NCBI GenBank assembly: GCA_964606065.1 | Contig: CAZSEX010000001.1 | Span: 112,429 to 176,428 of the forward strand | DNA length: 64,000 bases | Source: an uncultured bacterium | GTDB taxonomy: Bacteria; Hydrothermota; UBA3072 | Reading direction: 5' to 3' | In this document: one piece after another, positions 5,473 through 63,584 of the stretch | How the letters are laid out: each line of letters opens with the position of its first letter | How positions within the stretch are numbered: position 1 is the stretch's first letter | Notes under the pieces: generated by a model | What the model saw: the letters and a program-made list of their open reading frames with translations, nothing else | The model's database searches: none | What the model was told of the DNA's origin: nothing | Position numbers and translations under genes: made by a program

Positions 5473-5894
5473 ACGGTAAATATATCAAAACGAAACAAAT
5501 ATGTCAACAGCACTTCAGATTCGGAGAACCTGGATCCAGCCATTGGTTTTTTACCATTAGGGGCAGTTGCCGAAAGGAATTTGCCACGGGGAGTAATAAT
5601 TATAGGGGGATGGTGTTTAACGCCATGACATTAGGCGTCTGGTAAACCTTTTAAATTCTTCTTTGTTCTTTTGTATATTGTTCCTAAGGATGAAAGCTTC
5701 AGGGTTTAAAATAGTGGATATTCGATGATTTTACTGTATTTAAGTCCGGCTCTGTCTTTAAGGTATACAAGTAATTCTGATCTGAATTATATGGGGACTG
5801 AATTGTAAAAACTCTATGCCCTCTGTGTTCTCCATGTGAGAATTTAATTTTAATTATTGCTTGGTAAAGTTAGGAAAAACTACAATTCCTAAAT

Positions 5895-14816: not shown

Positions 14817-14887
14817 GCTCTGCTTTTACTTGCCCTATTAAGGGGTGAATAATATCTCTGTGCCCCGTGTTTATTGTTTTTCAATTC

Positions 14888-20668: not shown

Positions 20669-20704
20669 AAGCGGAATTTCGGTTATTAAACCAAACCACA
20701 GATT

Positions 20705-20760
20705 GCACAAGATTATCACAAGAAATTGCACCGCAGAGACGCAGAGGACGCAAAGAAACA
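20705..20760 (-). repeat. Partial copy (about 50 bp core) of the 146-bp dispersed element, upstream of era
   Basis: gattatcacaagaaattgcaccgcagagacgcagaggacgcaaaga matches 57751-57800 and the reverse complement of 51440-51476. Contains TGTGATAAT (extended -10 / Fur-box-like palindrome TGATAATCA) on the minus strand. Confidence 0.7.
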
Positions 20761-20920
20761 AAAAAATTATATAATGTTTTTTAAAACCCATGCTTCAACA
20801 CCCGACGGAATAGAAGTCTTTATTCCGTAGGGCAGGCTGAGAACGCAGAGAACAAATCTTACTTAACCACTAAACGACTTAACTACTCAACAATTCAACC
20901 ATTTAACGGATTCGAAGAAT

Positions 20921-25780: not shown

Positions 25781-27013
25781 ATGAGGAATAAAAATGTGTT
25801 CTTTTTATTTGTACTGATTCTGATTTTTGGTTGTGATGTTACTGAACCCACCGAACCGATCAGGGAATTAAGCTCAGCGGAAACGGAACTGATAGAAGCG
25901 GATAATTCTTTCGGGATTAAACTATTTAAAAGGCTTAACGCAGAAACGCCGGATTCGAATGTCTTTATCTCTCCTCTTTCGATTTCGATGGCTCTCGGTA
26001 TGACCTATAACGGGGCCGCCGGGAGTACCGAAGAAGCGATGAGGACCACGCTTGAATTCGGTGATTTATCGATGGGTGAGATAAACGAATCCTATAAAAG
26101 CCTGATAGAATTATTGGAGGGAATAGATTCGGATGTGGAGTTTAATATAGCAAATTCTATCTGGTATAGAGATGACTATACCTTCGAGCAGGATTTTTTT
26201 GACAGGTGCGGTGAATATTTCGACGCGAGAGTGAGCGGCCTCGATTTCGGCAAGCCGCAGGAGGCAAAGGATACGATGGACAACTGGGTGGATGAAAATA
26301 CAAATGGTAAAATCGAAGAAATTGTCGATTATGTCGACCCGATAAATGATGTGATGTTTCTGATAAACGCGATATATTTTAACGGTAACTGGACTTACCG
26401 TTTCGACGAGGAGGATACAGAAGACGGGACATTCTATCTTTTAGGGGGCGAAACAAAAGAGTGCAAGATGATGGAAATAAGAAGCCTTTTTAAGTATTTT
26501 GAAGATTCCCTTTTGCAGGCGATCGATATTCCGTATGGTGACGGGAATTATTCTATGACAGTAATCCTGCCGTATTATTGGAGAGACATTGATGCGTTTA
26601 TTGCGGGATTGACACAGGAGAAGTGGGATGAATGGATGAATGGTTTTTCCGAAGATTCGGTTAATTTGTTTTTACCTAAACTTAAACTGGAATATAAAAT
26701 AGATAAAAATTTGTTAACGGTTCTATCGGATATGGGGATGGAGATCGCTTTCGACCCGTTCGAAGCCGATTTTACCGGGATGTACGCTCCGGGGAACATA
26801 TATATAAGCAGAATAATACACAAGACTTTTTTGGAAGTGGATGAAGAAGGTACGGAAGCCGCGGCAGCCACTGTTGTCGCGATGACGCTTGGGGCAGTCG
26901 AGGACATTTTTCCTACCGTACGCCTGAACAGACCGTTTATTTTCGCAATCAGGGAGAACCATTCCGGTACCATACTTTTCATGGGGAAGATTATCGAGCC
27001 TGTCTGGGATTGA
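25781..27013 (+). CDS. Serpin (serine protease inhibitor) lipoprotein
   Basis: Signal plus lipobox (LILIFGCD). Serpin motifs NAIYFNGNWTYRFD, hinge EEGTEAAAATVVAM, LNRPFIFAIRE. Predicted P1 is acidic (VED/IF). Confidence 0.9.
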   Translation: MRNKNVFFLFVLILIFGCDVTEPTEPIRELSSAETELIEADNSFGIKLFKRLNAETPDSNVFISPLSISMALGMTYNGAAGSTEEAMRTTLEFGDLSMGEINESYKSLIELLEGIDSDVEFNIANSIWYRDDYTFEQDFFDRCGEYFDARVSGLDFGKPQEAKDTMDNWVDENTNGKIEEIVDYVDPINDVMFLINAIYFNGNWTYRFDEEDTEDGTFYLLGGETKECKMMEIRSLFKYFEDSLLQAIDIPYGDGNYSMTVILPYYWRDIDAFIAGLTQEKWDEWMNGFSEDSVNLFLPKLKLEYKIDKNLLTVLSDMGMEIAFDPFEADFTGMYAPGNIYISRIIHKTFLEVDEEGTEAAAATVVAMTLGAVEDIFPTVRLNRPFIFAIRENHSGTILFMGKIIEPVWD

Positions 27014-34403: not shown

Positions 34404-34680
34404 CTTCTTATAGTTGCTAAAATTCAAAAAGAAAAGAATATTAACCACAGAGGATACAGAGAAATGATTGTGTTAAAAAAGAAAAAAAGACTGAGAACAC
34501 AGAGAGAAAAACAAATAAAAACTCTGTGCTCTCCATGGTAAAAAAAATCCGGGGTTGAAAAAGAGGAGCTATATGTGTTTTTCATTTTGCTTTTTAAACT
34601 TTAATATTTCATTTTTAGAGGGAACGAAATTAAATGAGATGCTTTTTAAAAAAAAATATGAGTGATACTCTACGTTAAAA

Positions 34681-41867: not shown

Positions 41868-41912
41868 AAAAATTAGAATAAAAACAGAAACTTTGCGTTT
41901 TTTACGGCTTTG
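41868..41912 (+). repeat. Partial copy of the 146-bp element (cagtaaaaat...ctttgcgtttttta)
   Basis: ggcagtaaaaattagaataaaaacagaaactttgcgttttttacgg, compared with 51419-51452 gacagtaaaaatctttgcgttttttgtg. Confidence 0.45.
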
Positions 41913-42001
41913 TTAGCAGGTTGTAATATCGAACGTTAAAAACAAAAAATAAATTTTTTTATCTGTGCTTTCAGTGTTCCCGTGTACCTGTGTGGAGAAG
42001 T

Positions 42002-49386: not shown

Positions 49387-49429
49387 CCATGGAGGATACG
49401 GAGAAAAATTATGTTGTTTTTCCCAATCT

Positions 49430-49580
49430 CGATTAGAAATTGTAGGAGCGGCTTCCCAGCCGCGATAAGAAATTGTAGGAGAGGTTTCCTCGTCCTGTGG
49501 AATAGGGGTTCATCAGGTAACAGATTCTATTCCACGGGACAAGCCGCGATAATCGGGACAGGGATGTCCCTCCTACAAGA
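49430..49580. ncRNA. Candidate structured RNA / palindromic element in the M23-to-lipoprotein intergenic region
   Basis: AAATTGTAGGAG occurs twice (49436, 49469) and CTCCTACAA (49569) is its complement. A 12-bp stem CCTGTGGAATAG / CTATTCCACGGG (49492-49536), GGGACA-GGGA-TGTCCC (49553-49568), CGGCT-tccca-GCCG. Strand undetermined. Confidence 0.3.
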
Positions 49581-49696: not shown

Positions 49697-50557
49697 ATGA
49701 GGAAAATATGGATATTAATTAGTTTGATAATTGTTTTGTTGATGTTTACGGGATGTAGCATAGAGACGACTTATTGGCAGAATTGGGAAGCTCCCAATTG
49801 GACAAGCGATGGGAAGATAGTATTTCTTGAAGACGAGGGAGAACAAAAGATAAATAGTTGGGGCAATATGGTTGGTGGAAGTCAAACAATTACGCTTTAC
49901 GAGATAGATGAAGATGGAAATAATTTGCAGCAGATAAGAGAAATAATATCCTGTGACTTTGAAAGTGGTAGCGTCCTGGGCCCTATATCTACTTCGAGTG
50001 TCGGAGATTGGGTGGTTTTAAGCATGGAAGACTGGAGAAGAGGAGACCATTATCCTGTCATGTATACGGTTAAAAGAGATGGAGATTCTCTTTCGGAGAT
50101 AGGAAGCGGAAGAAATCCCGATTTTTCACCCGATGCATCACAGATTGTTTATGAGAAACCAAATGAAGGTATATGGATAATGGATAGGGATGGAGGGAAT
50201 GATCATCAGATAATTGCGGATGGTAAGGATCCAGCTTGGTCTCCAGATGGTAAAAGGATAGCATTTTATAAGGATTACAAGGGTTTATTAGTTTCCAATA
50301 CAAGCGGAAGTGTAATAGATTCCTTCAATTTTCGCCACTATCCTGATTGGGGTCCACCAGATTCAAACGCCTTAGTAGCAACACATTATGGTCTTGACAG
50401 AGGAGTAATTATATATATAGAAACGCATAATGAAGACACAACAGGGATCCTCAGTGGAGAATGGCCAATCAAGTGGTCTCCCTATGGGGCTCTTTTTATA
50501 TGTAATAAAACCATTTATCAGAGAAATGGAGCTGAGATTTTTAGTCTTGTACCTTAA
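49697..50557 (+). CDS. Lipoprotein with TolB-like PD40 beta-propeller repeats
   Basis: Lipobox LLMFTGCS. NPDFSPDASQIVYE, DPAWSPDGKRIAFY repeats. Confidence 0.55.
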   Translation: MRKIWILISLIIVLLMFTGCSIETTYWQNWEAPNWTSDGKIVFLEDEGEQKINSWGNMVGGSQTITLYEIDEDGNNLQQIREIISCDFESGSVLGPISTSSVGDWVVLSMEDWRRGDHYPVMYTVKRDGDSLSEIGSGRNPDFSPDASQIVYEKPNEGIWIMDRDGGNDHQIIADGKDPAWSPDGKRIAFYKDYKGLLVSNTSGSVIDSFNFRHYPDWGPPDSNALVATHYGLDRGVIIYIETHNEDTTGILSGEWPIKWSPYGALFICNKTIYQRNGAEIFSLVP

Positions 50558-50566
50558 GGAGGGAAT

Positions 50567-51337
50567 ATGATGCAAAAAATTCTATTAAAATTATTTATCT
50601 TGTTTATAGTTTCAATAAACGTATTAGCAGAACCTTACAAACCGTATCCGGTAATTTTCGTACACGGTCTCGGCTCCAGTTCGGGCGCTTGGGGTGCGCC
50701 TACACGTCTCAGAAGTGACTCTATACCTGAGGATTCGCTGGTATCAGGGCACACCTACAAACATTTCCTTGATTATATGGATCCTTATGCGATTGTGTGG
50801 GATGAATTTGACTCAACTTATACACATCCAGGAGGAACTCCGGGACATCCTAACCCTGATCCCGCTTACCCCAACAAAACCTTTCTCGAGGTGATTAATT
50901 TCAATTATAATCGTGGGAGTATTGATAGAGATACCGAATATGACAGTCCTGATTATAAGGGGCAGGGAGATGAGTTGTGGCACAGGATAAAAGAAGTTCT
51001 TGATGAGTATTATGGAGAAGGACAATGGGAAGATAACAGAAACGCGAAAGTGATTCTCGTTGGACATTCTATGGGAGCATTAGCTACAAGGCAGGCTATA
51101 AAAGAAGATGTGATTTATCATGATTCCCTACTTGTTCCTCATCTCGATAAAGTTATAACAATGGGTTCTCCTTTATCTGGTTCTATCTGGCCAACCCAGT
51201 TCCTGAGATTTCCTTTTGGAAATACTTTGTTCGTATGGCATCCGATTTCACAGCTAAACCAGTCAGTTGTGAAGAAATTAAGAAATTTATTCCATTGGGC
51301 AAGCCCCGTAGGGAAAGATGACTGTATCGGGGTGTGA
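50567..51337 (+). CDS. Secreted alpha/beta-hydrolase, lipase/esterase-like
   Basis: Signal peptide, PVIFVHGLGSSSGAW, nucleophile elbow VGHSMGA. Confidence 0.7.
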   Translation: MMQKILLKLFILFIVSINVLAEPYKPYPVIFVHGLGSSSGAWGAPTRLRSDSIPEDSLVSGHTYKHFLDYMDPYAIVWDEFDSTYTHPGGTPGHPNPDPAYPNKTFLEVINFNYNRGSIDRDTEYDSPDYKGQGDELWHRIKEVLDEYYGEGQWEDNRNAKVILVGHSMGALATRQAIKEDVIYHDSLLVPHLDKVITMGSPLSGSIWPTQFLRFPFGNTLFVWHPISQLNQSVVKKLRNLFHWASPVGKDDCIGV

Positions 51338-51343
51338 TTTGTT

Positions 51344-51489
51344 GTCACTTAATTTATTTGATGTGTTAGTACGTGAGTGTGTTGGTGGGTAAAAAACAGC
51401 CCAACCGACAAACAGATTGACAGTAAAAATCTTTGCGTTTTTTGTGTCTCTGCGGTGCAATTTTCTTGTGATAATCAGTGTAATCTCCT
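51344..51489 (+). repeat. 146-bp dispersed element, copy A (inverted partner at 57742-57887)
   Basis: About 96 percent identical to the reverse complement of 57742-57887. Contains TTGACAgtaaaaatctttgcg and TTCTTGTGATAATCA (extended -10 / TGATAATCA palindrome) oriented towards the 51566 gene. Confidence 0.85.
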
Positions 51490-51565
51490 GATTCTTGTTT
51501 GGAGTTTTGGAGTGGCTCTTGACAACCAAATTATTTTATGTATCCTAAATTCAAACGGAGGATAG

Positions 51566-52963
51566 ATGTTAACAGTTGAAAAAATTGGCGGAGTTTCGAT
51601 GTCGAAATTCCACGATGTGCTGAAAAACATAATTATTGGTAATCGTAGGAAAGGGAACTACTACAATCGGATTTTTGTCGTCTCCGCTTACGAAAACGTG
51701 ACCAATTGGCTCTTAGAACATAAGAAAACCGGTGAACCCGGAGTTTATTCGGAATTTGTGGCTCAAGGAAAATGCGATAAGGCCATGGAAGGTGTTCTTG
51801 ATAAACTGCTGAAAATAAACAGGTGTTTTGTCGATATCGGGTTGGATCTCGATGTGGCTGACAGTTTTATAAAAAACAGGATTCTTGAAGCTAAAAATTA
51901 TCTTCATAGCATGGCTAATGTTTTAGCTTCCGGTTACCTTGAAAGGGAGAGTATTTTGCTCGCGGCGCGAGAAGTTTTAGCTTCAATCGGTGAAACCCAT
52001 TCGGCTTTCAACACAGCAAATATTCTTCAGCATAATAATATTAATTCCACTTTTGTTGATTTATGTGGCTTTGAAGATTCAGAGTTGCTGAGTATTGATC
52101 AGAGAATACATAAGAAACTAAAAGAAATAAATTTTTCCGGAACCCTGGCTGTTGTTACCGGATATACGAAAGGAACGGAAGGGATTATGAGAGAATTTGA
52201 TAGAGGGTATTCGGAAATCACTTTCAGCAAGGTCGCAGTCGAGGTGGGAGCTACGGAAGCCGTAATTCATAAGGGATTTCACCTTTCATCCGCCGATCCA
52301 AAAGTGGTGGGAGAAGATAAAGCAATTCCCGTTGGATATACGAACTTCAATGTGGCGGATCAACTCGCGGATATAGGGATGGAAGCCATCCATCCTAAAG
52401 CGGCTAAACTTCTTGAATTGGCAGGAATACACATCAGAATAAAAAATACTTTTGAACCCGAACACGAAGGAACACTTATTTCTAAAGACTATGTAGGAGA
52501 AAAATCAAGGGTGGAAGTAATTTCCGGAAGCGATAAAGTTGTTGCTCTGGAAGTTCACGATCCTTTAATGGTAGGTGAGGTTGGAGCTGACCTTGAATTG
52601 ATGAAAATATTTAAGAAATGTGGAATAAGTTACATTTTGAAGGCAACTGATGCTAATAGCATATCGATGGTAATATGGGAGAAGGATTGGAGCAAAGAAT
52701 TGGAAAAAGAGTTGAAAGAGAAATATTATAGAATTACAGCTAAGAGAGCAGCAGTTCTTTGTGTGGTTGGTAGCAACATAGCGAATCCTGGGATTCTTGA
52801 AAAAACAACTAAATTGTTAGCAAAGGAAAAGATTAATGTTGAATGCGTTTCGCAGTCAATGCAGCAGGTTAATATGCAGTTTGTTATTCAGAGGAAGGAT
52901 TACAAAAGAGCTGTTGTTGCTTTGAATGATGCTCTTTGCGTTGAAGCGGAACTTGCGAAGTGA
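51566..52963 (+). CDS. Aspartate kinase (amino-acid kinase domain plus two ACT domains)
   Basis: VEKIGGVSM / IFVVSAYENVTNWLLE (compare VQKFGGTSV / VVVSAM.G.TN.L), HPKAAKLLELAGIHIRIKNTFEPEHEGTLIS, C-terminal ACT VLCVVGSNIANPGILEKTTKLLAKEKINVECVSQS. Confidence 0.7.
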   Translation: MLTVEKIGGVSMSKFHDVLKNIIIGNRRKGNYYNRIFVVSAYENVTNWLLEHKKTGEPGVYSEFVAQGKCDKAMEGVLDKLLKINRCFVDIGLDLDVADSFIKNRILEAKNYLHSMANVLASGYLERESILLAAREVLASIGETHSAFNTANILQHNNINSTFVDLCGFEDSELLSIDQRIHKKLKEINFSGTLAVVTGYTKGTEGIMREFDRGYSEITFSKVAVEVGATEAVIHKGFHLSSADPKVVGEDKAIPVGYTNFNVADQLADIGMEAIHPKAAKLLELAGIHIRIKNTFEPEHEGTLISKDYVGEKSRVEVISGSDKVVALEVHDPLMVGEVGADLELMKIFKKCGISYILKATDANSISMVIWEKDWSKELEKELKEKYYRITAKRAAVLCVVGSNIANPGILEKTTKLLAKEKINVECVSQSMQQVNMQFVIQRKDYKRAVVALNDALCVEAELAK

Positions 52964-53014
52964 TGTTTAAATCGGAAGAACTTTTTGATTGAAAAAAAGA
53001 GGAGATTGCTGTAA

Positions 53015-54229
53015 ATGTCTGAAATAAAAAACATCGGAATTATAACAAGTGGAGGAGATTGCGGCGGTCTAAACGCCGTTGTACGCGGAGCAGCTTTCAT
53101 GACTATGGCAAACGGGGTTTCAGCCTACGTTATTCCAAACGGTTACGCAGGATTGTATAATCTTATAGATATGGAGAAATTAGCCAGGTTGGATGAAAGG
53201 AGGGTTGATACGATAAATTCGACTCTTGCAGGTTCGGAAGCCGGACATTCCAGGGTAAAGATAAAAAAAATAAAGGATGAGAATAAATACAAAAGAATCA
53301 AAGAAGGGCTTAAAAAATTCAAAATAGGTGGTCTGGTTATTTCCGGCGGAGATGACACGGGCAGCGTGGTGGTAGATCTTGCGAATCAGGGTATCCCGTG
53401 TGTCCACGCTCCCAAAACAATGGATCTCGATCTTCAAACTTATTCCGTTGGAGCGGATTCGGCTATCAGCAGAGTTTCCAGTTTTGTATCAGATCTCAAA
53501 ACTACAGGACAGAGTCACAACAGAGTAATGGTGATTGAAGTGTTTGGAAGGTACGCCGGGCATACTGCATTTAGAGGAGGTGTAGGCGCTGACGCGGATT
53601 GTATTTTGGTTCCGGAAATACCGGTAGATTTCGATGTCGTATATAAGCATATGAAAAAGAATTTTATGAGAAGGATAATCGATAGCGATGTAAATGCGGG
53701 TACCTATTCGATTGTTGTAGCGGAAGGTATGAAGAACGCATCCGGAGAGGAATTGATCGACGAAACCGTCGGAGTCGACGCTTTCGGACACAAAAAATTA
53801 GCCGGGGCAGGCAGATATGTTCGGAAACAACTGGAAAATAGACTGAAAGCAGACCCTGAAATAAAAAAATTCATGAAGGAACAGGGAATGTTCGTTCCCG
53901 AATTGTACGAGGTTCCTGAAGTCCGTGATGTTAAACCGGAGCATCTTGTCCGTTCCGGAAAATCTTCGGCTTTCGATGTAAACTTCGGGATGGAAGCCGG
54001 AGCCGGAGCTGTGGTTCTCTTGCTTAACGGATTGAGCGGAGTAACCGTTCAGGATGTCAAGAAAGGAAAAATAAGGTATCTTCCCACGGATAAAGCGATA
54101 AAAGAGCGGAGTGTGGATCTTGAGATGGTTTCTTTTTACGAGAATCTCGGATTTTGCTTTGGGAGAAATCCCGATAGACGTAAGGCGGAATTTGAAGAAA
54201 ATAAAGGGGTGGTAGAACGCCATCTTTAG
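53015..54229 (+). CDS. 6-phosphofructokinase, PPi-dependent-type signatures
   Basis: IGIITSGGDCGGLNAVVRGA, GGDDTGS (GGDD rather than GGDG), PKTMDLDL (Lys where ATP-PFKs have Gly in G-T-I-D-N-D). Confidence 0.8.
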   Translation: MSEIKNIGIITSGGDCGGLNAVVRGAAFMTMANGVSAYVIPNGYAGLYNLIDMEKLARLDERRVDTINSTLAGSEAGHSRVKIKKIKDENKYKRIKEGLKKFKIGGLVISGGDDTGSVVVDLANQGIPCVHAPKTMDLDLQTYSVGADSAISRVSSFVSDLKTTGQSHNRVMVIEVFGRYAGHTAFRGGVGADADCILVPEIPVDFDVVYKHMKKNFMRRIIDSDVNAGTYSIVVAEGMKNASGEELIDETVGVDAFGHKKLAGAGRYVRKQLENRLKADPEIKKFMKEQGMFVPELYEVPEVRDVKPEHLVRSGKSSAFDVNFGMEAGAGAVVLLLNGLSGVTVQDVKKGKIRYLPTDKAIKERSVDLEMVSFYENLGFCFGRNPDRRKAEFEENKGVVERHL

Positions 54230-54239
54230 ATTGTAAAAA

Positions 54240-54480
54240 ATAACAGAGGAGAAGAAGAAAACACCAAAAATAATCGTATACTCGACTCCTCCCTGTCCTT
54301 ATTATAATTCAGGTCAAGGATTATTTGGATAATAAAGGTGTTGAAATCGAGTAAAAGGATGTTTCGAAGGATAGAGCCGCTGTCAGAATAATGATTGAAA
54401 AGTCCGGAGAAATAGGTGCTCCTCAAATTGATATAAATTGAACTATCATAGCCGGTTCCAACATAGACGTGATAGATGAA
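54240..54480 (+). pseudogene. Decayed glutaredoxin gene (frameshift after CPY plus two in-frame stops, no start codon)
   Basis: KIIVYSTPPCPY then a +1 shift to VKDYLDNKGVEIE*KDVSKDRAAVRIMIEKSGEIGAPQIDIN*TIIAGSNIDVIDEKL. This is a clear Grx/NrdH-like sequence interrupted by TAA and TGA. Confidence 0.55.
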
Positions 54481-54496
54481 AAGTTAAGGAGGGGAA

Positions 54497-54970
54497 ATGG
54501 CGATCTTTGAAGAAAAAGAGATTTTTAAGTTTGCTATAAGAATTGAAGAAAACGGTGAAAAATTTTATCGTTTTGCTTGCAATCTGACGGACAATGAGGA
54601 AACAAAAAAAATGTTTAATTATCTTGCGGATGAAGAAGTAAAACATAAGAAAACTTTTACCCGTCTTCTTTCCGAAATAACCAAGGACGTCTCTTTTGAG
54701 AATTACTCTGATGAGTATTTTGATTATCTGAAGTGTTATGTCGATAATGTGATTTTTACTGAGGAACAATTGGAAAAACAACAGAAAGAGGTAAAAGATG
54801 TTCTTTCTGCCATTAAATTCGCAATGCAAAAGGAGTTAGATTCAGTTCTTTATTATCACGAGGTTGAGAAATTTATACCTGCCAACCAGAAAAGTTTGAT
54901 AGAAGAGATAATCGCCGAAGAACGAAAACATTACTCGAAATTATCGGAGATGAAAAAAAACCTTAAATGA
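54497..54970 (+). CDS. Rubrerythrin/ferritin-like diiron-carboxylate protein (no rubredoxin domain)
   Basis: Two E...ExxH half-sites: ENGEKFYRF...ADEEVKHKK and QKELDSVLYYHE...IAEERKHYS. Confidence 0.65.
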   Translation: MAIFEEKEIFKFAIRIEENGEKFYRFACNLTDNEETKKMFNYLADEEVKHKKTFTRLLSEITKDVSFENYSDEYFDYLKCYVDNVIFTEEQLEKQQKEVKDVLSAIKFAMQKELDSVLYYHEVEKFIPANQKSLIEEIIAEERKHYSKLSEMKKNLK

Positions 54971-54971
54971 T

Positions 54972-55766
54972 TTGATAAAAAAAAGAGGTTCTTTTTCCTT
55001 AAAAATTATCGTCTTAGGCTCTGGAAGTTGTGTTCCTTCTCATAAAAGATATCCCGCTTCCTATTTTTTTTACCCGTTTAACTCAAATGAAAACTGGCTT
55101 GTCGATATAGGCGAGGGAGCTCTTTTTCGACTGTCGGAAGCTGGTTTATCTTACAAGGAAATAGACAGGATATTTGTAAGCCACACCCACCCCGATCACA
55201 TCGGAGCGCTTGTATCATTACTGCTTGCTTTAAATTACACTCCCGGCTTTAAACGGGAAAAACCTTTATATATATACGGTCCCGAAGACGTCGGCGAATA
55301 TCTTCAAATGCATCTAAAATTTGCTCCTTATTTGAAGAGTAGTTTTCCGATGGAGTTTATTCCGGTCTTACCGGACCATAAAATGGAAATCAAAAACTGT
55401 TTATTGGAGACGAAAAAAATGAAGCATTTTAACCCGACTCTGGGCTATAGATGGGATTTCGGAAGGTGTGCTGTGGTTTATGGAGCTGACGGCGGTTTTT
55501 CGAAAACTCTGATTCAACTTGCTTACGACGCGGATTTTTTGATTCTGGAGAGTTCTTACCCTGCAGAGAAACCTGTGACCGGCCACCTAACAACAAAGGA
55601 GGCGGGGGAGATCGCAAGAGAAGCAAGAGCTAAGCGATTGATGCTAACCCACTTTTATCCTGAAGTTGCGGAGATGGATGTTGGAGACATAAAAAAAGAA
55701 GTAAAATTATCCGGTTACGAAGGAGAAATTATCGCGGCAAAGGATTTAATGACACTACAGGTATAA
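54972..55766 (+). CDS. MBL-fold metallo-hydrolase (RNase Z-like)
   Basis: IIVLGSGSCVPS, VSHTHPDHIGAL, LMLTHFYP. Confidence 0.7.
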   Translation: MIKKRGSFSLKIIVLGSGSCVPSHKRYPASYFFYPFNSNENWLVDIGEGALFRLSEAGLSYKEIDRIFVSHTHPDHIGALVSLLLALNYTPGFKREKPLYIYGPEDVGEYLQMHLKFAPYLKSSFPMEFIPVLPDHKMEIKNCLLETKKMKHFNPTLGYRWDFGRCAVVYGADGGFSKTLIQLAYDADFLILESSYPAEKPVTGHLTTKEAGEIAREARAKRLMLTHFYPEVAEMDVGDIKKEVKLSGYEGEIIAAKDLMTLQV

Positions 55767-55807
55767 ATTTATGAAGGTGTTCGATGTGAAATTGAATGTT
55801 ATTAAAA

Positions 55808-56920
55808 TTAAACGCCTTCGCCCGAGGTGGCTATTTCTATCAATTCGTCCAGTTTTTTCTCAAGGTTGGCGGGTAATCCGCGGATACCCTTCTCCAGGAA
55901 ACCTCTTATCAAAAGAGCTCTCGAGGTTTCTTCGTCGAGTCCTCGCGACATGAGGTAATTAAGCTGCTCTCCGGCGATTTTACCAATTGAAGCCTCATGC
56001 GAAAGTTCTGTATCCATAATATTCGCTTTTAACTCGGGTATTGTATAGACCGAACTTTTATCATCGAGAAGCAAGCCGTTACATTCAGTATGTCCTCTTG
56101 TGTCTTTTTCGTTACCTTCAATGTAAGCTCTGGAGATAACACGACTACTTTTCAGCGCGATTCTGCTTATTATTTCGCAGTTAGCTCCTTTACCATTTAA
56201 AATCCCCCTGGTTCCCATATCAATCGTAGAACCGGATTTTCCATATATAACAGAGCTGAATTTACCCACAGCCCCGTCAGAGAAGTAGGCTACCGGGTTG
56301 CTCTGGATTTTCTTTACCCGGGTTAAAGCAATATAATTCGAAGTGAAAACGGCATCTTTCCCAACATCTGTAGCCGTTCTCGGATATACTACAGTTTCCG
56401 CCCCCCAATCGTGAATCATGGTATAAGTAAGTTCCGCTTTTTCCCGAATAAACATCTCGGTAATGGCGATATGATTTCCCATGGTTACCAGATTGCCTGT
56501 GGCGCAGCCGTTTATAATATTTAACTCTGAAAGCGGTTCAAGAACGATAATATTGTGAAGCACCTGTTTGAATCCCTGATTATGAAGAAAAAAACAGGAT
56601 TGAAAAGGTGCTTCAATTTTGGCTCCTTCTTTAACGTATATAAAACTACCGAGTAACTCTTTCTGAGTTGAAACTTCTCTGGTGTACTCATCCTGTTCTC
56701 TTTTTACAAGAGAAAACATCAGACTCTTTACCCAGTCATATACTTCGACAGCGAAAGAAATGGGCATTACAATAAGGTCTTCTTCATTCGATGAAGACTC
56801 TGCGGTGTTATTGTCGGCGATAAGAAAAGATCCGGATCTTTTTGTTTTCCCTGTTATGTCAAAGCCAACCCGGGTCAGGTTCGCAATCTCTGCTTCTAAA
56901 TTTTTGTCAAGTTTTTTCAC
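55808..56920 (-). CDS. Fe-S cluster assembly protein, SufB/SufD family (short form)
   Basis: SufBD beta-helix core ...YPRTATDVGKDAVFTSNYIALTRV...GHTECNGLLLDDKSSVYTIPEL. Overlaps sufC by 14 nt. Confidence 0.8.
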   Translation of the reverse strand: MKKLDKNLEAEIANLTRVGFDITGKTKRSGSFLIADNNTAESSSNEEDLIVMPISFAVEVYDWVKSLMFSLVKREQDEYTREVSTQKELLGSFIYVKEGAKIEAPFQSCFFLHNQGFKQVLHNIIVLEPLSELNIINGCATGNLVTMGNHIAITEMFIREKAELTYTMIHDWGAETVVYPRTATDVGKDAVFTSNYIALTRVKKIQSNPVAYFSDGAVGKFSSVIYGKSGSTIDMGTRGILNGKGANCEIISRIALKSSRVISRAYIEGNEKDTRGHTECNGLLLDDKSSVYTIPELKANIMDTELSHEASIGKIAGEQLNYLMSRGLDEETSRALLIRGFLEKGIRGLPANLEKKLDELIEIATSGEGV

Positions 56921-57674
56921 CTGTTCGAGATTCCTTAATACATCTTACAAAACCGTATTTTTTTACCTGATCAAAAATATCGAGAGGAGAGCCAAAACAC
57001 TTGACTTTACCGTTCACAATAACATATCCCTTGTCGGCATGTAACTCTTCAAGAATCATTCCCGAATGAGTGACAATTATACCGCTGTTTTTTCTTTCTC
57101 TTATAAGTTTATCTTTTTGCAGTAGTTTTCTGATAATACTCACCATCAATTTTATGTTGTCTACATCTACGCCCGAATCGGGCTCATCAAGCATGACGAG
57201 TTGCGGATTCTGGGCTACAAGTTGCAAAAGCTCATTTTTTCTTCTTTCCCCCCCGGAAAACCCAACATTGATTTCTCTCTCTAAATAATTTTCCATCCCT
57301 GCTTTTCTGGCAACTTCCTCGGGGGCTTTTTCATCCGAAACCATAGCTTTTAAAAGAACTCTGAGAGAAACGCCTTCCACTACAGGAGGATGTTGAAAGG
57401 CGAGTCCTATACCGGCTTTTGCTCTTGCCGTAAGATTCCAATCAAGAATCGAATTACCCCTGAAAAGTATATCCCCTTCTACGACTTTATATTCCGGTAA
57501 TCCCATAATGGCGTTTACCAGTGTGGTTTTTCCCGAACCGTTCGGACCAAAAACGATGTGAGTTTCTCCTTCCTTCACCGTCATGTCGAGTCCCTGAAGA
57601 AGACACTTACCCCCGACTTCAACACCGAGCCTTTTAACTTCTAACAAAACACCCTTATCTTCAGAATCAGACAT
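56907..57674 (-). CDS. sufC: Fe-S cluster assembly ATPase SufC
   Basis: GPNGSGKTT, FSGGERRKNELLQL, MLDEPDSGVDV. Start ATG 57674 (MSDSEDKG) lies 7 nt after a TAAAAT -10 box (leaderless-type); the track's ATG 57722 lies inside the promoter. Confidence 0.9.
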   Translation of the reverse strand: MSDSEDKGVLLEVKRLGVEVGGKCLLQGLDMTVKEGETHIVFGPNGSGKTTLVNAIMGLPEYKVVEGDILFRGNSILDWNLTARAKAGIGLAFQHPPVVEGVSLRVLLKAMVSDEKAPEEVARKAGMENYLEREINVGFSGGERRKNELLQLVAQNPQLVMLDEPDSGVDVDNIKLMVSIIRKLLQKDKLIRERKNSGIIVTHSGMILEELHADKGYVIVNGKVKCFGSPLDIFDQVKKYGFVRCIKESRTGEKT

Positions 57675-57720
57675 ATTGTTAATTTTAGCGTAAAAGGAAT
57701 GGTTGTCAAGAGCCGACCGC
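57675..57720 (-). promoter_or_regulatory. Core promoter TTGACA-N16-TAAAAT abutting the sufC ATG. It shares the 15-mer GGCTCTTGACAACCA with the 51566 gene's upstream region.
   Basis: Minus strand reads ggctcTTGACAaccattccttttacgcTAAAATtaacaatATG. At 51505-51521 the sequence is ggctcTTGACAaccaaattattttatgTATCCT. Confidence 0.5.
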
Positions 57721-57741
57721 AACCTCCAATAGGAACCACAG

Positions 57742-57887
57742 GACTACACTGATTATCACAAGAAAATTGCACCGCAGAGACACAAAGAACGCAAAGATTT
57801 TTACTGTCAATCTGTTTGTCGGGTGGGCTGTTTTTTACCCATCAACACCACTCACGTACTAACACATCAATTAAATTAAGCGATAAC
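57742..57887 (-). repeat. 146-bp dispersed element, copy B (inverted relative to copy A)
   Basis: See copy A. Five differences across 146 bp. Confidence 0.85.
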
Positions 57888-58056
57888 AAATCCTATTCCG
57901 ATACAGCAATCATTCCTTCCGGGACAGGCTCAATAGAATAGAAGTTCTTGCGAAATATTTTCCCATTCCACAGGACAGACAAAGAAGTGGAGTTGACTTG
58001 ACTTTTCATAATAAAACTACTATAATTTTTAATAATATAGGGGATATATTAAAAAA

Positions 58057-60480
58057 ATGAAAAGATGTCTCGTGTTATTTATAGTGTTTTCTTTTTTTTG
58101 TACAACAGTTACACTCCCGGCTATTTTTGCTAATAGCACCAGAACGATAAAAACAGGTATTTATGAAAATGAACCCAAGATATTCACAGATAATGAAAAA
58201 CCTTCCGGTTTCTGGGTGGAACTTTTAAACCATATAGCTTTACGAGAAAATTGGAATATCGAGTGGGTACATGGTACCTGGAATGAATGCCTGCAAAGAT
58301 TGGAGGAAGGTAAAATAGATTTGATGCCGGATGTTGCCTATACAAAGGTGAGAGCAAAAAAATATGCTTTTCAGAACGAAACGGTTTTTATCAGCTGGGC
58401 GAGAGTCTATGTGCCGGTAGGTTCGGGGATTCAATCTTTTCTCGATCTTAATGGTAAAAGAATAGCGGTCTTAAAAGGCAGTGTTAATTATATAGGAATA
58501 GATGGGGTAAAGGAATTAACAGAAAAATTCGGGATCGAATGTATTTTCGTAGAAACAGATAATTATAACGACGTGTTTAAACTATTGGAAAAAAAAGAAG
58601 CTGACGCGGGTGTTGTGAACAAAAATTTTGGCAACTTAAACGAAAAGGAATATAAAGTTAAAAGAACTGCCGTAGTTTTCCAGCCGGCGGATTTAAGATT
58701 TGCTTTTTCGAAAAAAACCGCTTTAACGCCTCTTTTGATTACAAGAACAGACCATAACATTAAAGAGATGAAGGCTAATAAGGGTTCGATATATTATAAT
58801 TTATTGGAAAAACATTTTGAGGGACCGATTACTAAGAAACTTGTAATGCCCTCCTGGGTAAAGGAAACTATGTTCACAATCTGCGGTTTATTATTTTTTC
58901 TTTTGATGGTATCGATAGCATCCGGAATTCAGATCAAGAGAAAGACAAAACAGCTCAAAGAAAGCGAGGAGAGATACAAAACTTTGTTTGAAAATTCCCC
59001 GGAAGGTATACTTGTAGCCGAAGTTAAAAGTAAACGATTTTTATATGCCAACCCTGCGATATGTGATATGTTGGGATATTCTAAGGAGGAATTGCAACAA
59101 ATGGGGGCATATGATATCTATCCGAAAGACTCGGTGAAAGATGTGGTTTCCGATTTCGAGGCTCAGGCGCGCGGGGAGAAAACTTTAGTTCCGCTTGTTC
59201 CCTGTTTACGAAAAGATGGTACAACAATATATACCGATATAGCTACAACTAAGATGAATATACAGGACAGGGAGTGCAACGTGGGTTTCTTTACGGACAA
59301 AACAGATTATAAAAAAGCCGAAGAAGAAAAAGAAAAAATAAATTTACAGTTACTACAGGCACAGAAGATGGAATCTGTGGGTAGGTTGGCGGGAACAATC
59401 GCTCATGATTTTAATAACCTCCTGACAGCGATAATCGGCTACGGCAGTCTCCTCCGGGATGAAATTCCGCCCGGTGATTCTAAACGAGAGATGGTAGAAG
59501 AGATTCTTTTTGCTGCAAATCAGGCGGCAAGACTCACAGGTCAGCTTCTTACCTTTAGTCGGAAAAGTTCGACAGAACTCGAAGTGATGGACTTTAATTC
59601 CGTAGTAAAGGAAGTTAAAGGTATGATCGACCGCTTGATCGGAGAAAATATCGTTTTTTCGAGTGATATCGCGAAAGGTTCAATAAAAATCAAGGGAGAT
59701 ACCACTCAAATAAAACAGGTGATTTTAAACTTGATTGTTAACGCGCGGGACGCGATGCCCAGGGGTGGAGAATTATACATAAAGACAGAAAAAATTGCTA
59801 TTGAAGATAGAGAAACCGATAGAATAACTTATTCTTACCCGGGAGAATTTGTTTGTTTAACAGTTTTGGACACGGGCGAGGGAATGAGTAAGGATAAGCT
59901 GGCGAAAGTATTTGACCCATTCTACACAACAAAAGAAAAGGGAACCGGGCTCGGTTTGTCAGTGGCCCACGAAATTATAAAGAAGCATAATGGTTGGATA
60001 AACGTGGAAAGTGAAGTTTCTAAAGGATCCACATTTAAAGTTTACCTTCCTTTGTGTTATGAAGAAAAAGAAACGAAAAGTAACGAAGTTATTTCTGTCG
60101 AAAAATTACGTGGAAAAGGAGAAACGATACTTGTCGTGGAAGACGAAGAGATTACGCGAGCGTTCATTTTGAAAGTTCTAAGGGAAAACGGATATTTCGT
60201 ATTAGAGGCTGAGTGCCTCGAAGAGGCTAATGAGATTTACGAAGAAAATAAAGATAGGATAAAAATGGTTTTTAGCGACGTTGTTTTGTCGGACGGAAGT
60301 GGTTTGGCATTTGTCGAAAAACTTACCTCTAAAAACGAGAAACTTAAAGTTCTTCTAAGCAGTGGTTATATGGGTAATAAGGCTGAGATTTTACGTGTTG
60401 CCGGAAATAAATTTAACTTTTTAGAAAAACCATACGATGTTTCCCGACTATTGAAAAAAATTAAAGAAATTTTGTCTTGA
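58057..60480 (+). CDS. Hybrid sensor histidine kinase: periplasmic solute-binding-like domain, TM, PAS, HisKA, HATPase and a C-terminal receiver
   Basis: SBP_bac_3-like N-terminus (TIKTGIYENEPKIFTD). PAS ERYKTLFENSPEGILV. H-box AGTIAHDFNNLLTAI. G-box GTGLGLSV. Receiver ILVVEDEE...FSDVVLSDGSG. Confidence 0.9.
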   Translation: MKRCLVLFIVFSFFCTTVTLPAIFANSTRTIKTGIYENEPKIFTDNEKPSGFWVELLNHIALRENWNIEWVHGTWNECLQRLEEGKIDLMPDVAYTKVRAKKYAFQNETVFISWARVYVPVGSGIQSFLDLNGKRIAVLKGSVNYIGIDGVKELTEKFGIECIFVETDNYNDVFKLLEKKEADAGVVNKNFGNLNEKEYKVKRTAVVFQPADLRFAFSKKTALTPLLITRTDHNIKEMKANKGSIYYNLLEKHFEGPITKKLVMPSWVKETMFTICGLLFFLLMVSIASGIQIKRKTKQLKESEERYKTLFENSPEGILVAEVKSKRFLYANPAICDMLGYSKEELQQMGAYDIYPKDSVKDVVSDFEAQARGEKTLVPLVPCLRKDGTTIYTDIATTKMNIQDRECNVGFFTDKTDYKKAEEEKEKINLQLLQAQKMESVGRLAGTIAHDFNNLLTAIIGYGSLLRDEIPPGDSKREMVEEILFAANQAARLTGQLLTFSRKSSTELEVMDFNSVVKEVKGMIDRLIGENIVFSSDIAKGSIKIKGDTTQIKQVILNLIVNARDAMPRGGELYIKTEKIAIEDRETDRITYSYPGEFVCLTVLDTGEGMSKDKLAKVFDPFYTTKEKGTGLGLSVAHEIIKKHNGWINVESEVSKGSTFKVYLPLCYEEKETKSNEVISVEKLRGKGETILVVEDEEITRAFILKVLRENGYFVLEAECLEEANEIYEENKDRIKMVFSDVVLSDGSGLAFVEKLTSKNEKLKVLLSSGYMGNKAEILRVAGNKFNFLEKPYDVSRLLKKIKEILS

Positions 60481-62291: not shown

Positions 62292-63584
62292 CTAACGGCG
62301 AATTCTCTTCAAAGCTTCATTTAAAAGTTTTATAGCGCAGAATTTTCCGCACATCGAACAGGTCTCCTCGAATTCAGGAGTCGTTTTATATCTTATTTCC
62401 TCGGCTTTTTTAGCGTCTATGACCAGTTTAAATTGCGTTTTCCAGTCCATTTTTTTTCTCGCGAGTGAAATTTCTCTATCCCAATCTTTCGCACCAGGAA
62501 TACCCTTTGCTATATCACCCGCATGAGCGGCTATTCGTGCTGCAATTACACCTTTTTCGACATCTTCCAGGTCGGGTATCCCGAGGTGCTCTGAAGGTGT
62601 AACGTAACAGAGAAAATCGGCTCCGTAAGAAGCCGCCACAGCTCCGCCGATTGCCGAAACAATGTGATCGTAGCCGGGAGCAACGTCTGTAACCAAAGGT
62701 CCCAAAACGTAAAAAGGTGCTCCGTGGCAGACTTTTTTTTCGATTTTAACATTCATTTCGATTTCATTTATTGGGACATGACCGGGACCCTCGATTATGA
62801 CTTGAACATCTCTTTCATGAGCTCTCTTAGTTAATTCTCCGAGAATACTCAACTCATGAAATTGGGCCCTATCGGACGAATCTTCAATGGCGCCTGGGCG
62901 GAATCCGTCTCCCAGAGAAAGGGTTATATCATACTTAGAAGCGATGTCCAGAATTCTATCGAAGTTAGTATATAAAGGGTTTTCTCTTTCGTTGTAAAGC
63001 ATCCAGGTTAAGAGGAATGTTCCACCCCTTGAAACAACGTCCATTATTCTGCTTTGATTTCTGAGACGTTCGAAAGTTTCTATAGTAACTCCGCAGTGAA
63101 GAGTCATAAAGTCTACTCCCTCTTTTGCCTGTTCCTCGATAACTTCGAAGATTTTGTTCTCAGTCATGTGAATTATACCACCATTTTCTTTAACGGCTTC
63201 TATTGCTGCTTGATATACGGGAACTGTACCAAGAGGCACAGATGTTTTTTTCAGGATTTCTTTTCTGATTTTCTTAATGTCTCCTCCGGTAGAAAGATCC
63301 ATTATCGTATCGGCGCCAGCTTTCTCGGCTAAAATAGCTTTTTCTACTTCGAGATTTATGTCGGATTTATCAGTGGAAGTTCCAATATTGGCGTTTACTT
63401 TTGTGGTAAGAGGAAACCCGATTCCTGTCGGCTTTACGCCTTTTCGCTTCTCGTTTTTTGTTATTATTATTTTTCTCTCGAGAATATTTTCAACCAGAAT
63501 ATCGAGATTTATATTTTCCGAATCCGCAACTTTACGAACTATGGAAGGAACCCGTCCCTTTTTCAGTTCGGTAATAATTCCCAA
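62292..63584 (-). CDS. thiC: Phosphomethylpyrimidine synthase
   Basis: 430 aa, GAPFYVLGPLVTDVAPGYDHI, C-terminal CSMCGKFCA cluster motif. Confidence 0.9.
   Translation of the reverse strand: MGIITELKKGRVPSIVRKVADSENINLDILVENILERKIIITKNEKRKGVKPTGIGFPLTTKVNANIGTSTDKSDINLEVEKAILAEKAGADTIMDLSTGGDIKKIRKEILKKTSVPLGTVPVYQAAIEAVKENGGIIHMTENKIFEVIEEQAKEGVDFMTLHCGVTIETFERLRNQSRIMDVVSRGGTFLLTWMLYNERENPLYTNFDRILDIASKYDITLSLGDGFRPGAIEDSSDRAQFHELSILGELTKRAHERDVQVIIEGPGHVPINEIEMNVKIEKKVCHGAPFYVLGPLVTDVAPGYDHIVSAIGGAVAASYGADFLCYVTPSEHLGIPDLEDVEKGVIAARIAAHAGDIAKGIPGAKDWDREISLARKKMDWKTQFKLVIDAKKAEEIRYKTTPEFEETCSMCGKFCAIKLLNEALKRIRR

Follow-up and report, generated by a model that had tools for sequence, protein, structure and literature searches.

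Several kinds of short intergenic repeats are known in bacteria. The bacterial interspersed mosaic elements (BIMEs) of enterobacteria and the BOX elements of Streptococcus pneumoniae are intergenic mosaics of a few short dispersed modules, which vary in number and order, are lineage-specific, are copied between loci and sometimes lie beside promoters. Ectopic gene conversion and inverted segmental duplication between dispersed repeats, such as insertion sequence (IS) copies, rrn operons and repetitive extragenic palindromic (REP) clusters, are likewise known processes. Tandem heptamers are known as dispersed intergenic arrays too, sometimes in promoter regions. These are the short tandemly repeated repetitive (STRR) sequences of filamentous cyanobacteria (PMC2670836). 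A REP is a palindrome of 20-40 bp that bears an unpaired GTAG (or CGTC) tag on one side (PMC3733652), and REP elements and REP doublets forming hairpins (REPINs) are mobilised by REP-associated tyrosine transposases (RAYT) (PMC3733652, PMC3116915). Here we considered, against this background, a stretch of 64,000 nt (hereafter, the window) from contig CAZSEX010000001.1 of an uncultured bacterium of the Hydrothermota, in which a long inverted repeat brackets a 6.2-kb block with the genes of an aspartokinase, a phosphofructokinase (PFK), a rubrerythrin, a metallo-beta-lactamase (MBL) hydrolase and SufB and SufC.

One arm of the repeat lies upstream of the aspartokinase operon and the other upstream of sufC (Table 1). 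We give a probability of about 0.55 to the reading that the repeat arose by ectopic duplication or gene conversion between two repeat-rich upstream regions, hence that it is a product of recombination and not a device. Precisely, the left-arm tract is absent from the sister genomes and bounded at 51288 and about 51489, and the identity between the arms changes in steps from 70 to 94 and 54%, and then to 100% at the promoter 15-mer, an unevenness that fits conversion tracts. As in the known cases of ectopic conversion, a patch of near-identity is bounded by unrelated or older sequence, is missing from sister genomes and offers a substrate for RecA-mediated inversion; the patch in the window differs from them in being short (~200 bp), wholly non-coding in origin and located at two promoters.

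The repeat was recovered alike by repeat search, MAFFT alignment and blastn. The best local alignment (blastn) paired 51280-51528 (+) with 57949-57700 (-) over 251 columns with 85.3% identity (E = 5e-74), while the repeat search alone gave two pairs, 51379-51506 / 57721-57848 (90%) and 51288-51396 / 57832-57940 (77%), which gapped alignment and blastn merged. An earlier note, made from the same DNA, had described arms of 146 bp with about 5 differences; the repeat is real and larger than claimed, but the differences in the core amount to 6 substitutions and 1 indel, and the right-arm coordinates given there are about 3 nt out of register owing to this indel. In register, the core (51347-51486) matches in 133 of 141 columns (94%). 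Its identity differs from that of the outer part (Fisher p = 6e-5), and the longest perfect runs between the arms are 42, 35, 21 and 18 nt long. Among the repeats of the window the arm pair is the longest, the others being a tandem repeat with a period of 74 nt at 722-911 (87% over 117 nt) and a partial third copy of 58-65 nt (20694-20756). The geometry first described, with each arm upstream of the outermost gene and facing inward, was confirmed, and so was the role of a shared 15-mer as provider of the -35 box, since it is exact in both arms and holds the TTGACA of the best sigma-70-like sites. We also considered this 15-mer as a recombination junction and dropped the idea, because the identity of the 24 nt between core and promoter is only 54% and each locus seems to have its own native sequence there.

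For the comparison with relatives we used aspartokinase homologues at 82-89% amino-acid identity, from metagenome-assembled genomes of uncultured bacteria and from sediment metagenomes, and compared eight loci (loci of relatives are cited below by handles such as L001); the nearest named aspartokinases are from Bacteroidales, at 69% identity. The genes of BatA, a response regulator, an M23 peptidase, aspartokinase, PFK, glutaredoxin, rubrerythrin and MBL hydrolase are syntenic in most of the eight loci, and the closest group (L001, L005 and L006) additionally has the convergent sufB-sufC pair. The long repeat was not found in any of these three, all with the same gene order, and therefore it is a derived state of the window genome. 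In these loci the regions upstream of aspartokinase and of sufC have in common only the 14-15-nt GGCTCTTGACAAC(C) and heptamer-array matches of at most 80 nt at 74-83% identity.

The same comparison indicates which arm is in its original place. In seven relatives aligned by eye, the sequence from GGCTCTTGACAAC to the ATG of aspartokinase is conserved throughout and everything further upstream differs per species. The homology of the left arm to the orthologous aspartokinase-upstream region starts only at 51512, the sequence of the relatives at the position of the arm being unrelated, and the arm begins abruptly at 51288, within the open reading frame (ORF) of an alpha/beta-hydrolase. The homology of the right arm to the sufC-upstream region of L001 and L005 runs 40-60 nt past the arm end. 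Outside the position equivalent to 51288, agreement with the L005 outgroup is seen at 15 sites for the right arm, against 3 for the left one. In a four-way alignment the right arm, L001 and L005 have the same order of modules upstream of sufC, namely d, f, e, an A-run with a TGYG array and ATCAGTGTAATCT. The right arm thus stands in the ancestral position upstream of sufC, and the left arm would be the copy.

Both core promoters are native. That of aspartokinase is kept in all the close relatives L001-L011, and GGCTCTTGACAACC is also found upstream of sufC in L001, L005 and L006. The aspartokinase and sufC promoters of these three genomes, which carry no long repeat, have the extended -35 GGCTCTTGACAAC(C) in common, and the other promoters of the window have only CYCTTGAC in common. 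This is a weak hint of a feature of the two promoters that is independent of the repeat, and the common extended -35 is ancestral to the two. The pattern of the lineage is that core promoters are conserved and the DNA upstream of them turns over fast.

After the split from the nearest sequenced relatives, a mosaic of ~200 bp upstream of sufC would have been copied, inverted, to the front of the aspartokinase promoter, through a non-allelic gene conversion or duplication that may have been seeded by the inverted heptamer arrays already present in both upstream regions; an array is found upstream of the aspartokinase promoter in every relative except L002. The tract would have run outward as far as the d hairpin, with its end in the loop, and would have replaced the native DNA upstream of the aspartokinase array as well as the 3' terminal part of the hydrolase gene. 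A later, renewed change in the right-arm d module would leave the core at 94% between segments of 70 and 54%. Comparable repeats a few kb apart are found in relatives: 94 nt at 85% in L003, 63 nt at 98% in L007 (inverted, 6.3 kb apart) and 210 nt at 81% in L117. The window repeat is the largest example seen, yet it is of the same kind as those of the relatives, hence ordinary for the lineage.

Some points weigh against this account. Between 51293 and 51347 the left arm matches the outgroup at 14 sites at which the right arm differs, and the reverse occurs at 0 sites, so that the right-arm d module would have been changed or overwritten after the copying and at least two events would be needed. 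The part with the array and TGATAATC, at the least, has spread beyond the two arms, as is shown by the partial copy in front of era. Selective neutrality is our assumption, and the very high identity of the core could also reflect selection. Finally, the copy count of the 200-nt composite covers the 64-kb window only.

The arms are a mosaic of short repeats that are lineage-specific, dispersed and in part mobile. In this they resemble BIMEs and BOX elements, from which they differ in that their modules are unrelated in sequence, lie mainly upstream of promoters rather than downstream of genes, are weakly palindromic and have no associated protein known. The 14-mer TTCTTGTGATAATC occurs in both arms and in the third copy, whereas TGATAATCA is found, within the window, in the two arms only (0.8 occurrences expected by chance). 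A 56-nt clean insertion in L099, GCCTGCCCCGTAAGGAAGAATGACTGTATCGGGGTAGGGAGGAACAACTGTACCAGG, represents the full form of module d: the flanks are otherwise near-identical to those of L091 and L094, and no target duplication is obvious. Element d is demonstrably mobile. We found 10 copies of it in the loci of relatives (two in L003, four in L117, and others in L092, L099, L001 and L005, besides that in the left arm of the window), and no match to its pattern in viral contigs. The two copies of L003 are direct repeats on either side of the aspartokinase-MBL operon, and L117 has tandem and nested forms of the element.

Element d is like REP/REPIN elements in its small size (~56 nt), in its GTA(A/G)GG, in its intergenic copies (10), in its insertion polymorphism with no target duplication evident (L099), and in its tandem or nested clusters. 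It fails, however, the structural definition of a REP, because it folds into a 9-bp stem with a 19-nt loop (dG -7.8 kcal/mol, z -1.25) with the GTA inside the stem, and the 200-nt arms are not palindromic units. No RAYT gene was found among the ~50 proteins of the window that we scanned. Other repeats were observed as well. Three tandem units of ~74 nt (87% identity) at 722-911 of the window are REP-like in a more canonical way than element d, each having GTAG, then the hairpin CGTAGCGCGGGGGTTTATCCCCCGC and, besides, the hairpin GTTGGGGACGAGCCCCAAC. Another repeat cluster (49420-49580) lies between the gene of the M23 peptidase and that of PD40; it has AGAAATTGTAGGAG(C/A)GG... twice, and its hairpin CCTGTGGAATAG...CTATTCCACGGG (z of the DNA fold -2.67) is akin both to 20800-20840 and to the hairpin on the outer side of the right arm. 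In addition, the 1.1-kb sufC-upstream region of L005 and L001 holds three tandem units of ~65 nt (L005 8790-9010, -), AAAACCGTGCCCGYTCGG.TCCGAGG.ATTTT.C.TGA.CAGCACCC.

A mobile module raises the question of whether the whole ~200-nt composite, or its 140-nt core, is a non-autonomous mobile element of the type of miniature inverted-repeat transposable elements (MITEs) or REPINs, with independent insertions upstream of the two promoters and, in part, of era. We consider this unlikely, though its probability is not negligible. Element d is mobile and dispersed; modules d and f travel together in L092, L005 and the window; the part with the array and TGATAATC has three copies in 64 kb; and the outer part of the left arm is closer to L005 than that of the right arm. 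On the other hand, the right arm aligns collinearly with the orthologous DNA in front of sufC in relatives and so is not an insertion. The arm ends, TATTCCATTGGG... and ...CAGTGTAATC, are not complementary, their flanking bases differ, and they show neither terminal inverted repeats nor a target-site duplication, for which reason we rejected a classical MITE. The window has two full copies and one partial copy. A 29-nt pattern of the core had no exact match in 185,579 GTDB species genomes or in JGI metagenome contigs, and blastn of the arm against plasmid and phage collections gave no match. Pfam found no transposase, integrase or recombinase family among the ~50 window proteins, including the genes between and beside the arms, which agrees with the statement of the earlier note that no transposase lies between the repeats and that they do not form a classical composite transposon. 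Among the alternatives which that note listed, a duplicated module and a MITE-like element come closest, as the arms are a duplicated mosaic of dispersed repeats; an inversion switch, the third one, is unlikely, as no recombinase was found.

The third, partial copy lies upstream of era. Its 17-mer TCTCTGCGGTGCAATTT and its TTCTTGTGATAATC are both exact, and the 9-mer palindrome of the arms is broken in it and reads TGATAATCT. We compared the era upstream regions across 11 relatives: the core promoter TTTCCCTTGACTTTATAAGTGATAGGGATATATTTGCTTATATG is conserved in 11 of 11 and all the DNA upstream of it differs per species. No trace of the third copy was seen upstream of era in the closest relatives, L089 (85% Era identity) and L090 (80%). 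In L092 the era upstream region has both module d and module f, which also occur together in the arms.

A further explanation is that the arms are a selected cis-regulatory cassette (an operator or activator array, or an upstream promoter) that couples the operon of aspartokinase, PFK and rubrerythrin to sufCB and partly to era. Its core is at 94% while the flanks diverged, TTCTTGTGATAATC stands 42, 41 and 45 nt upstream of the -35 box in the three copies, the arrays of the lineage are oriented towards promoters (see below) and TGTGATAAT looks like an extended -10 element. Nevertheless we judge it quite improbable. The repeat is not conserved in the relatives at any of the three promoters, the arm motif being absent there upstream of aspartokinase, sufC and era alike, and two arms that were copied from each other make one observation. 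The motif is also missing from the other redox and Fe-S genes of the window, namely from upstream of those of thioredoxin reductase, thioredoxin, glutaredoxin and NUBPL.

The earlier note had proposed, more precisely, a site for an iron or peroxide regulator (Fur/PerR), and this proposal was not supported. By hand count the candidate site matches the 19-bp Fur consensus GATAATGATAATCATTATC at 12 of 19 positions (central 9-mer only), and in the window there is no match to the consensus at up to 3 mismatches; a scan with the Rex pattern gave no Rex-like site in the core. The occurrence upstream of era, which is neither an iron nor a redox gene, counts against the idea as well, and there the palindrome is broken. 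Absence of the repeat from relatives with the same gene order had been named in that note as evidence against its own reading, and this absence is what we found.

The heptamer arrays, of the form (CTYTGYG N1-3)n, were counted by regular expression with controls, an nhmmer profile of the array being too short for significant E-values. The window and close relatives have 0.81 of them per 10 kb, as against 0.05 per 10 kb for aspartokinase loci of Bacteroidales (1.1 Mb); shuffled sequence has 0. Many intergenic regions of the window hold such arrays, and a frequent form consists of an A-run, the array, GTTCAA, a T-run and GGGTGGGG. In 20 of 31 arrays a TTGAC[AT] was found within 130 nt downstream on the same strand, while 2 arrays point away and the background is 5%. 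When orthologous positions were removed, ~10-13 independent arrays pointed at a promoter and 2 away, in a sample that is biased towards two promoters, so the polarity towards downstream promoters is suggestive. The arrays satisfy the description of STRR sequences, i.e. tandem heptamers dispersed in intergenic regions, but they belong to another phylum, have another heptamer (CTYTGYG with 1-3-nt spacers) and are polar towards the downstream -35 box. We know of no report of such a polarity for STRR sequences, and a literature search by strings of the array sequence gave unrelated primer matches only. Inverted pairs of the same kind of array (TTCTTTGCGTCCTTTGCGTCTCTGCGGTGA) are found in a distant lineage, with an Era 46-47% identical (L120 7270-7400 and 8066-8110; L104 6618-7470), with the reverse-complement array directly after a stop codon and the forward array just before the next gene. 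Candidate readings of such a pair are a long hairpin, a terminator and a REPIN-like unit.

The orientation of the arrays allows a broader version of a functional reading, which we regard as doubtful: the core of the repeat may be a portable promoter-upstream cassette, made of an A-run, a phased CTYTGYG/TGTGnnAATC array and a T/G-rich tail, that would be a polar promoter feature of the whole lineage. If so, a global factor might bind to it, or it might shield promoters from transcription that reads in, and its copying from sufC to aspartokinase, and partly to era, would have rewired these genes into one regulatory group.

The arms are inverted, and the length of their perfect runs (42 and 35 nt) suffices for homologous recombination, which recalls a programmed switch that inverts the 6.2-kb block, with the arms as its recombination sites. 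We find this very improbable, since no recombinase or invertase was found in the window and the gene order equals that of the relatives without arms. In fact, both promoters and their operons lie inside the arms, so that the linkage of promoters and genes is unchanged on flipping and an inversion rewires nothing.

It could also be argued that each arm encodes a small RNA, a 5' leader or a micro-protein, because a 22-codon TTG-initiated ORF, MTVKIFAFFVSLRCNFLVIISV, occurs in both arms and is the only one common to them. The chances of this seem to us close to nil. Rfam gave no hit at the gathering threshold over the window and nothing relevant at E up to 10 over 51000-58300, a scan for tRNA and tmRNA found none, and the RNA folds of both arms and of the reverse strand were no better than shuffles (z -1.43, +0.53 and -0.59); on the absent Rfam match and these unremarkable folds we ruled out a small RNA or a structured cis-regulatory RNA. 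The arms, moreover, lie upstream of the -35/-10 sites. As for coding, the identity of the ORF follows from that of the DNA, and a 1-nt deletion breaks it in the era copy.

We took into account also an artefact of metagenome assembly, with a chimeric join at the repeat, since L004, an independent Logan contig from this species, begins ~60 nt downstream of the left arm. This is scarcely credible: the arms show 7 differing positions in the core and diverge strongly beyond it, hence they are not collapsed or duplicated reads, and the gene order on both sides agrees with that of the relatives.

Table 1. Position of the repeat, its parts and associated features in the window (strand with respect to the contig; copies of element d in other loci are preceded by the handle of the locus)
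Feature	Position	Strand	Remarks
Left arm	51288-51489	+	upstream of aspartokinase operon; probable derived copy
Right arm	57739-57941	-	upstream of sufC; ancestral position
Outer part	51280-51343		70% identity; overlaps last 50 nt of ORF 50567-51337
Core as delimited in the earlier note	51344-51489	+	92.5-94% identity to 57739-57885
Gap between core and promoter	51490-51513 (24 nt)		54% identity
15-mer GGCTCTTGACAACCA	51514-51528 and 57700-57714		exact in both
Aspartokinase core promoter, native	51514-51546	+	15-mer GGCTCTTGACAACCA; TTGACA-16-TATCCT; best sigma-70-like site
sufC core promoter, native	57682-57714	-	15-mer GGCTCTTGACAACCA; TTGACA-16-TAAAAT; best sigma-70-like site
Left-arm module order	d (51300-51333), f, e, A-run + heptamer array (51425-51463), TTGTGATAATCAGTGTAATC	+	
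Module d			GGAATAG/CTATTCC hairpin + CCCCGTAGGGAAGGATGACTGTATCGGG
Module f			TGATTTGTTGTYACTTAATTT
Module e			GTTAG...GTGGG...AAAAAAC
Element d copies	L099 3794-3851; L003 9713-9770, 14359-14411; L117 394-513, 3737-3797; L092 3776-3810; window 51300-51333		
Third, partial copy	20694-20760	-	heptamer array + TTCTTGTGATAATC, upstream of era; 45 nt upstream of era -35 box (20665)
Heptamer arrays of the window	5812-5835 (+), 14854-14873 (+), 20723-20760 (-), 20835-20860 (-), 34439-34462 (-), 34521-34541 (+), 41891-41920 (+), 41965-42001 (+), 51425-51463 (+), 57764-57802 (-)		
Alpha/beta-hydrolase ORF	50567-51337	+	last 16 codons + stop codon come from left arm
Glutaredoxin pseudogene	54264-54507	+	65% identity to intact L005 gene; two in-frame stops; CPYC -> CPYY

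The gene content of the block was as first described: Pfam supports the aspartokinase, PFK, rubrerythrin, MBL hydrolase, SufBD and SufC, and tblastn with the intact gene of a relative finds the glutaredoxin relic. In the hydrolase, residues 241-256 match by tblastn the non-coding sufC-upstream DNA of L001 and L005, and the ~30 C-terminal residues fail to align with homologues. This gene and a PD40-repeat gene (together 49697-51337) stand between the M23 peptidase and aspartokinase in this genome only (compared with L001, L002, L006, L008 and L086), and in the relatives the M23 peptidase gene is directly upstream of that of aspartokinase. The sister species L086 has the PD40/hydrolase pair in a different context, with the hydrolase shortened to 191 aa, and that context gave no origin for the left arm. 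Genes of the HPP family and of DUF6036 lie between MBL hydrolase and sufB in L001 (14206-15345) and L005 (5258-6397) and are missing in the window (55767-55807), while beyond sufC the window has a hybrid histidine kinase and L005 the series Metallophos-NusB-RibH-RibBA. Compared with L001 and L005, the locus has thus been unstable in other respects too, through gene insertion, pseudogenisation of glutaredoxin, loss of HPP/DUF6036 and an altered sufC flank. Elsewhere in this bacterial window there is a full-length serpin gene (25781-27013; Pfam Serpin, E 2e-114), and an M23-peptidase ORF abuts the start codon of ThiC (62292-63584); Rfam at the gathering threshold reports no thiamine pyrophosphate (TPP) riboswitch anywhere in the window.

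If the repeat is the product of ectopic duplication or conversion, both operons would now have in common the DNA from about -60 to -260 and whatever binds there. The arms, with up to 42 bp of perfect identity, could support a rare RecA-dependent inversion of the 6.2-kb block, in which no operon would be parted from its own promoter. For annotation, this reading removes a call that is tempting but unsupported, be it as Fur/PerR operator, riboswitch, transposon or phase switch. The locus would illustrate, in a small and clean case, how promoters that are unrelated can swap upstream DNA by way of short dispersed repeats and how adjacent genes are clipped in the process, here that of the hydrolase, whose C-terminus and stop codon are derived from the repeat. 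The oriented arrays and the ~56-nt mobile element in front of conserved core promoters could, in turn, point to an undescribed promoter-proximal DNA-binding system.

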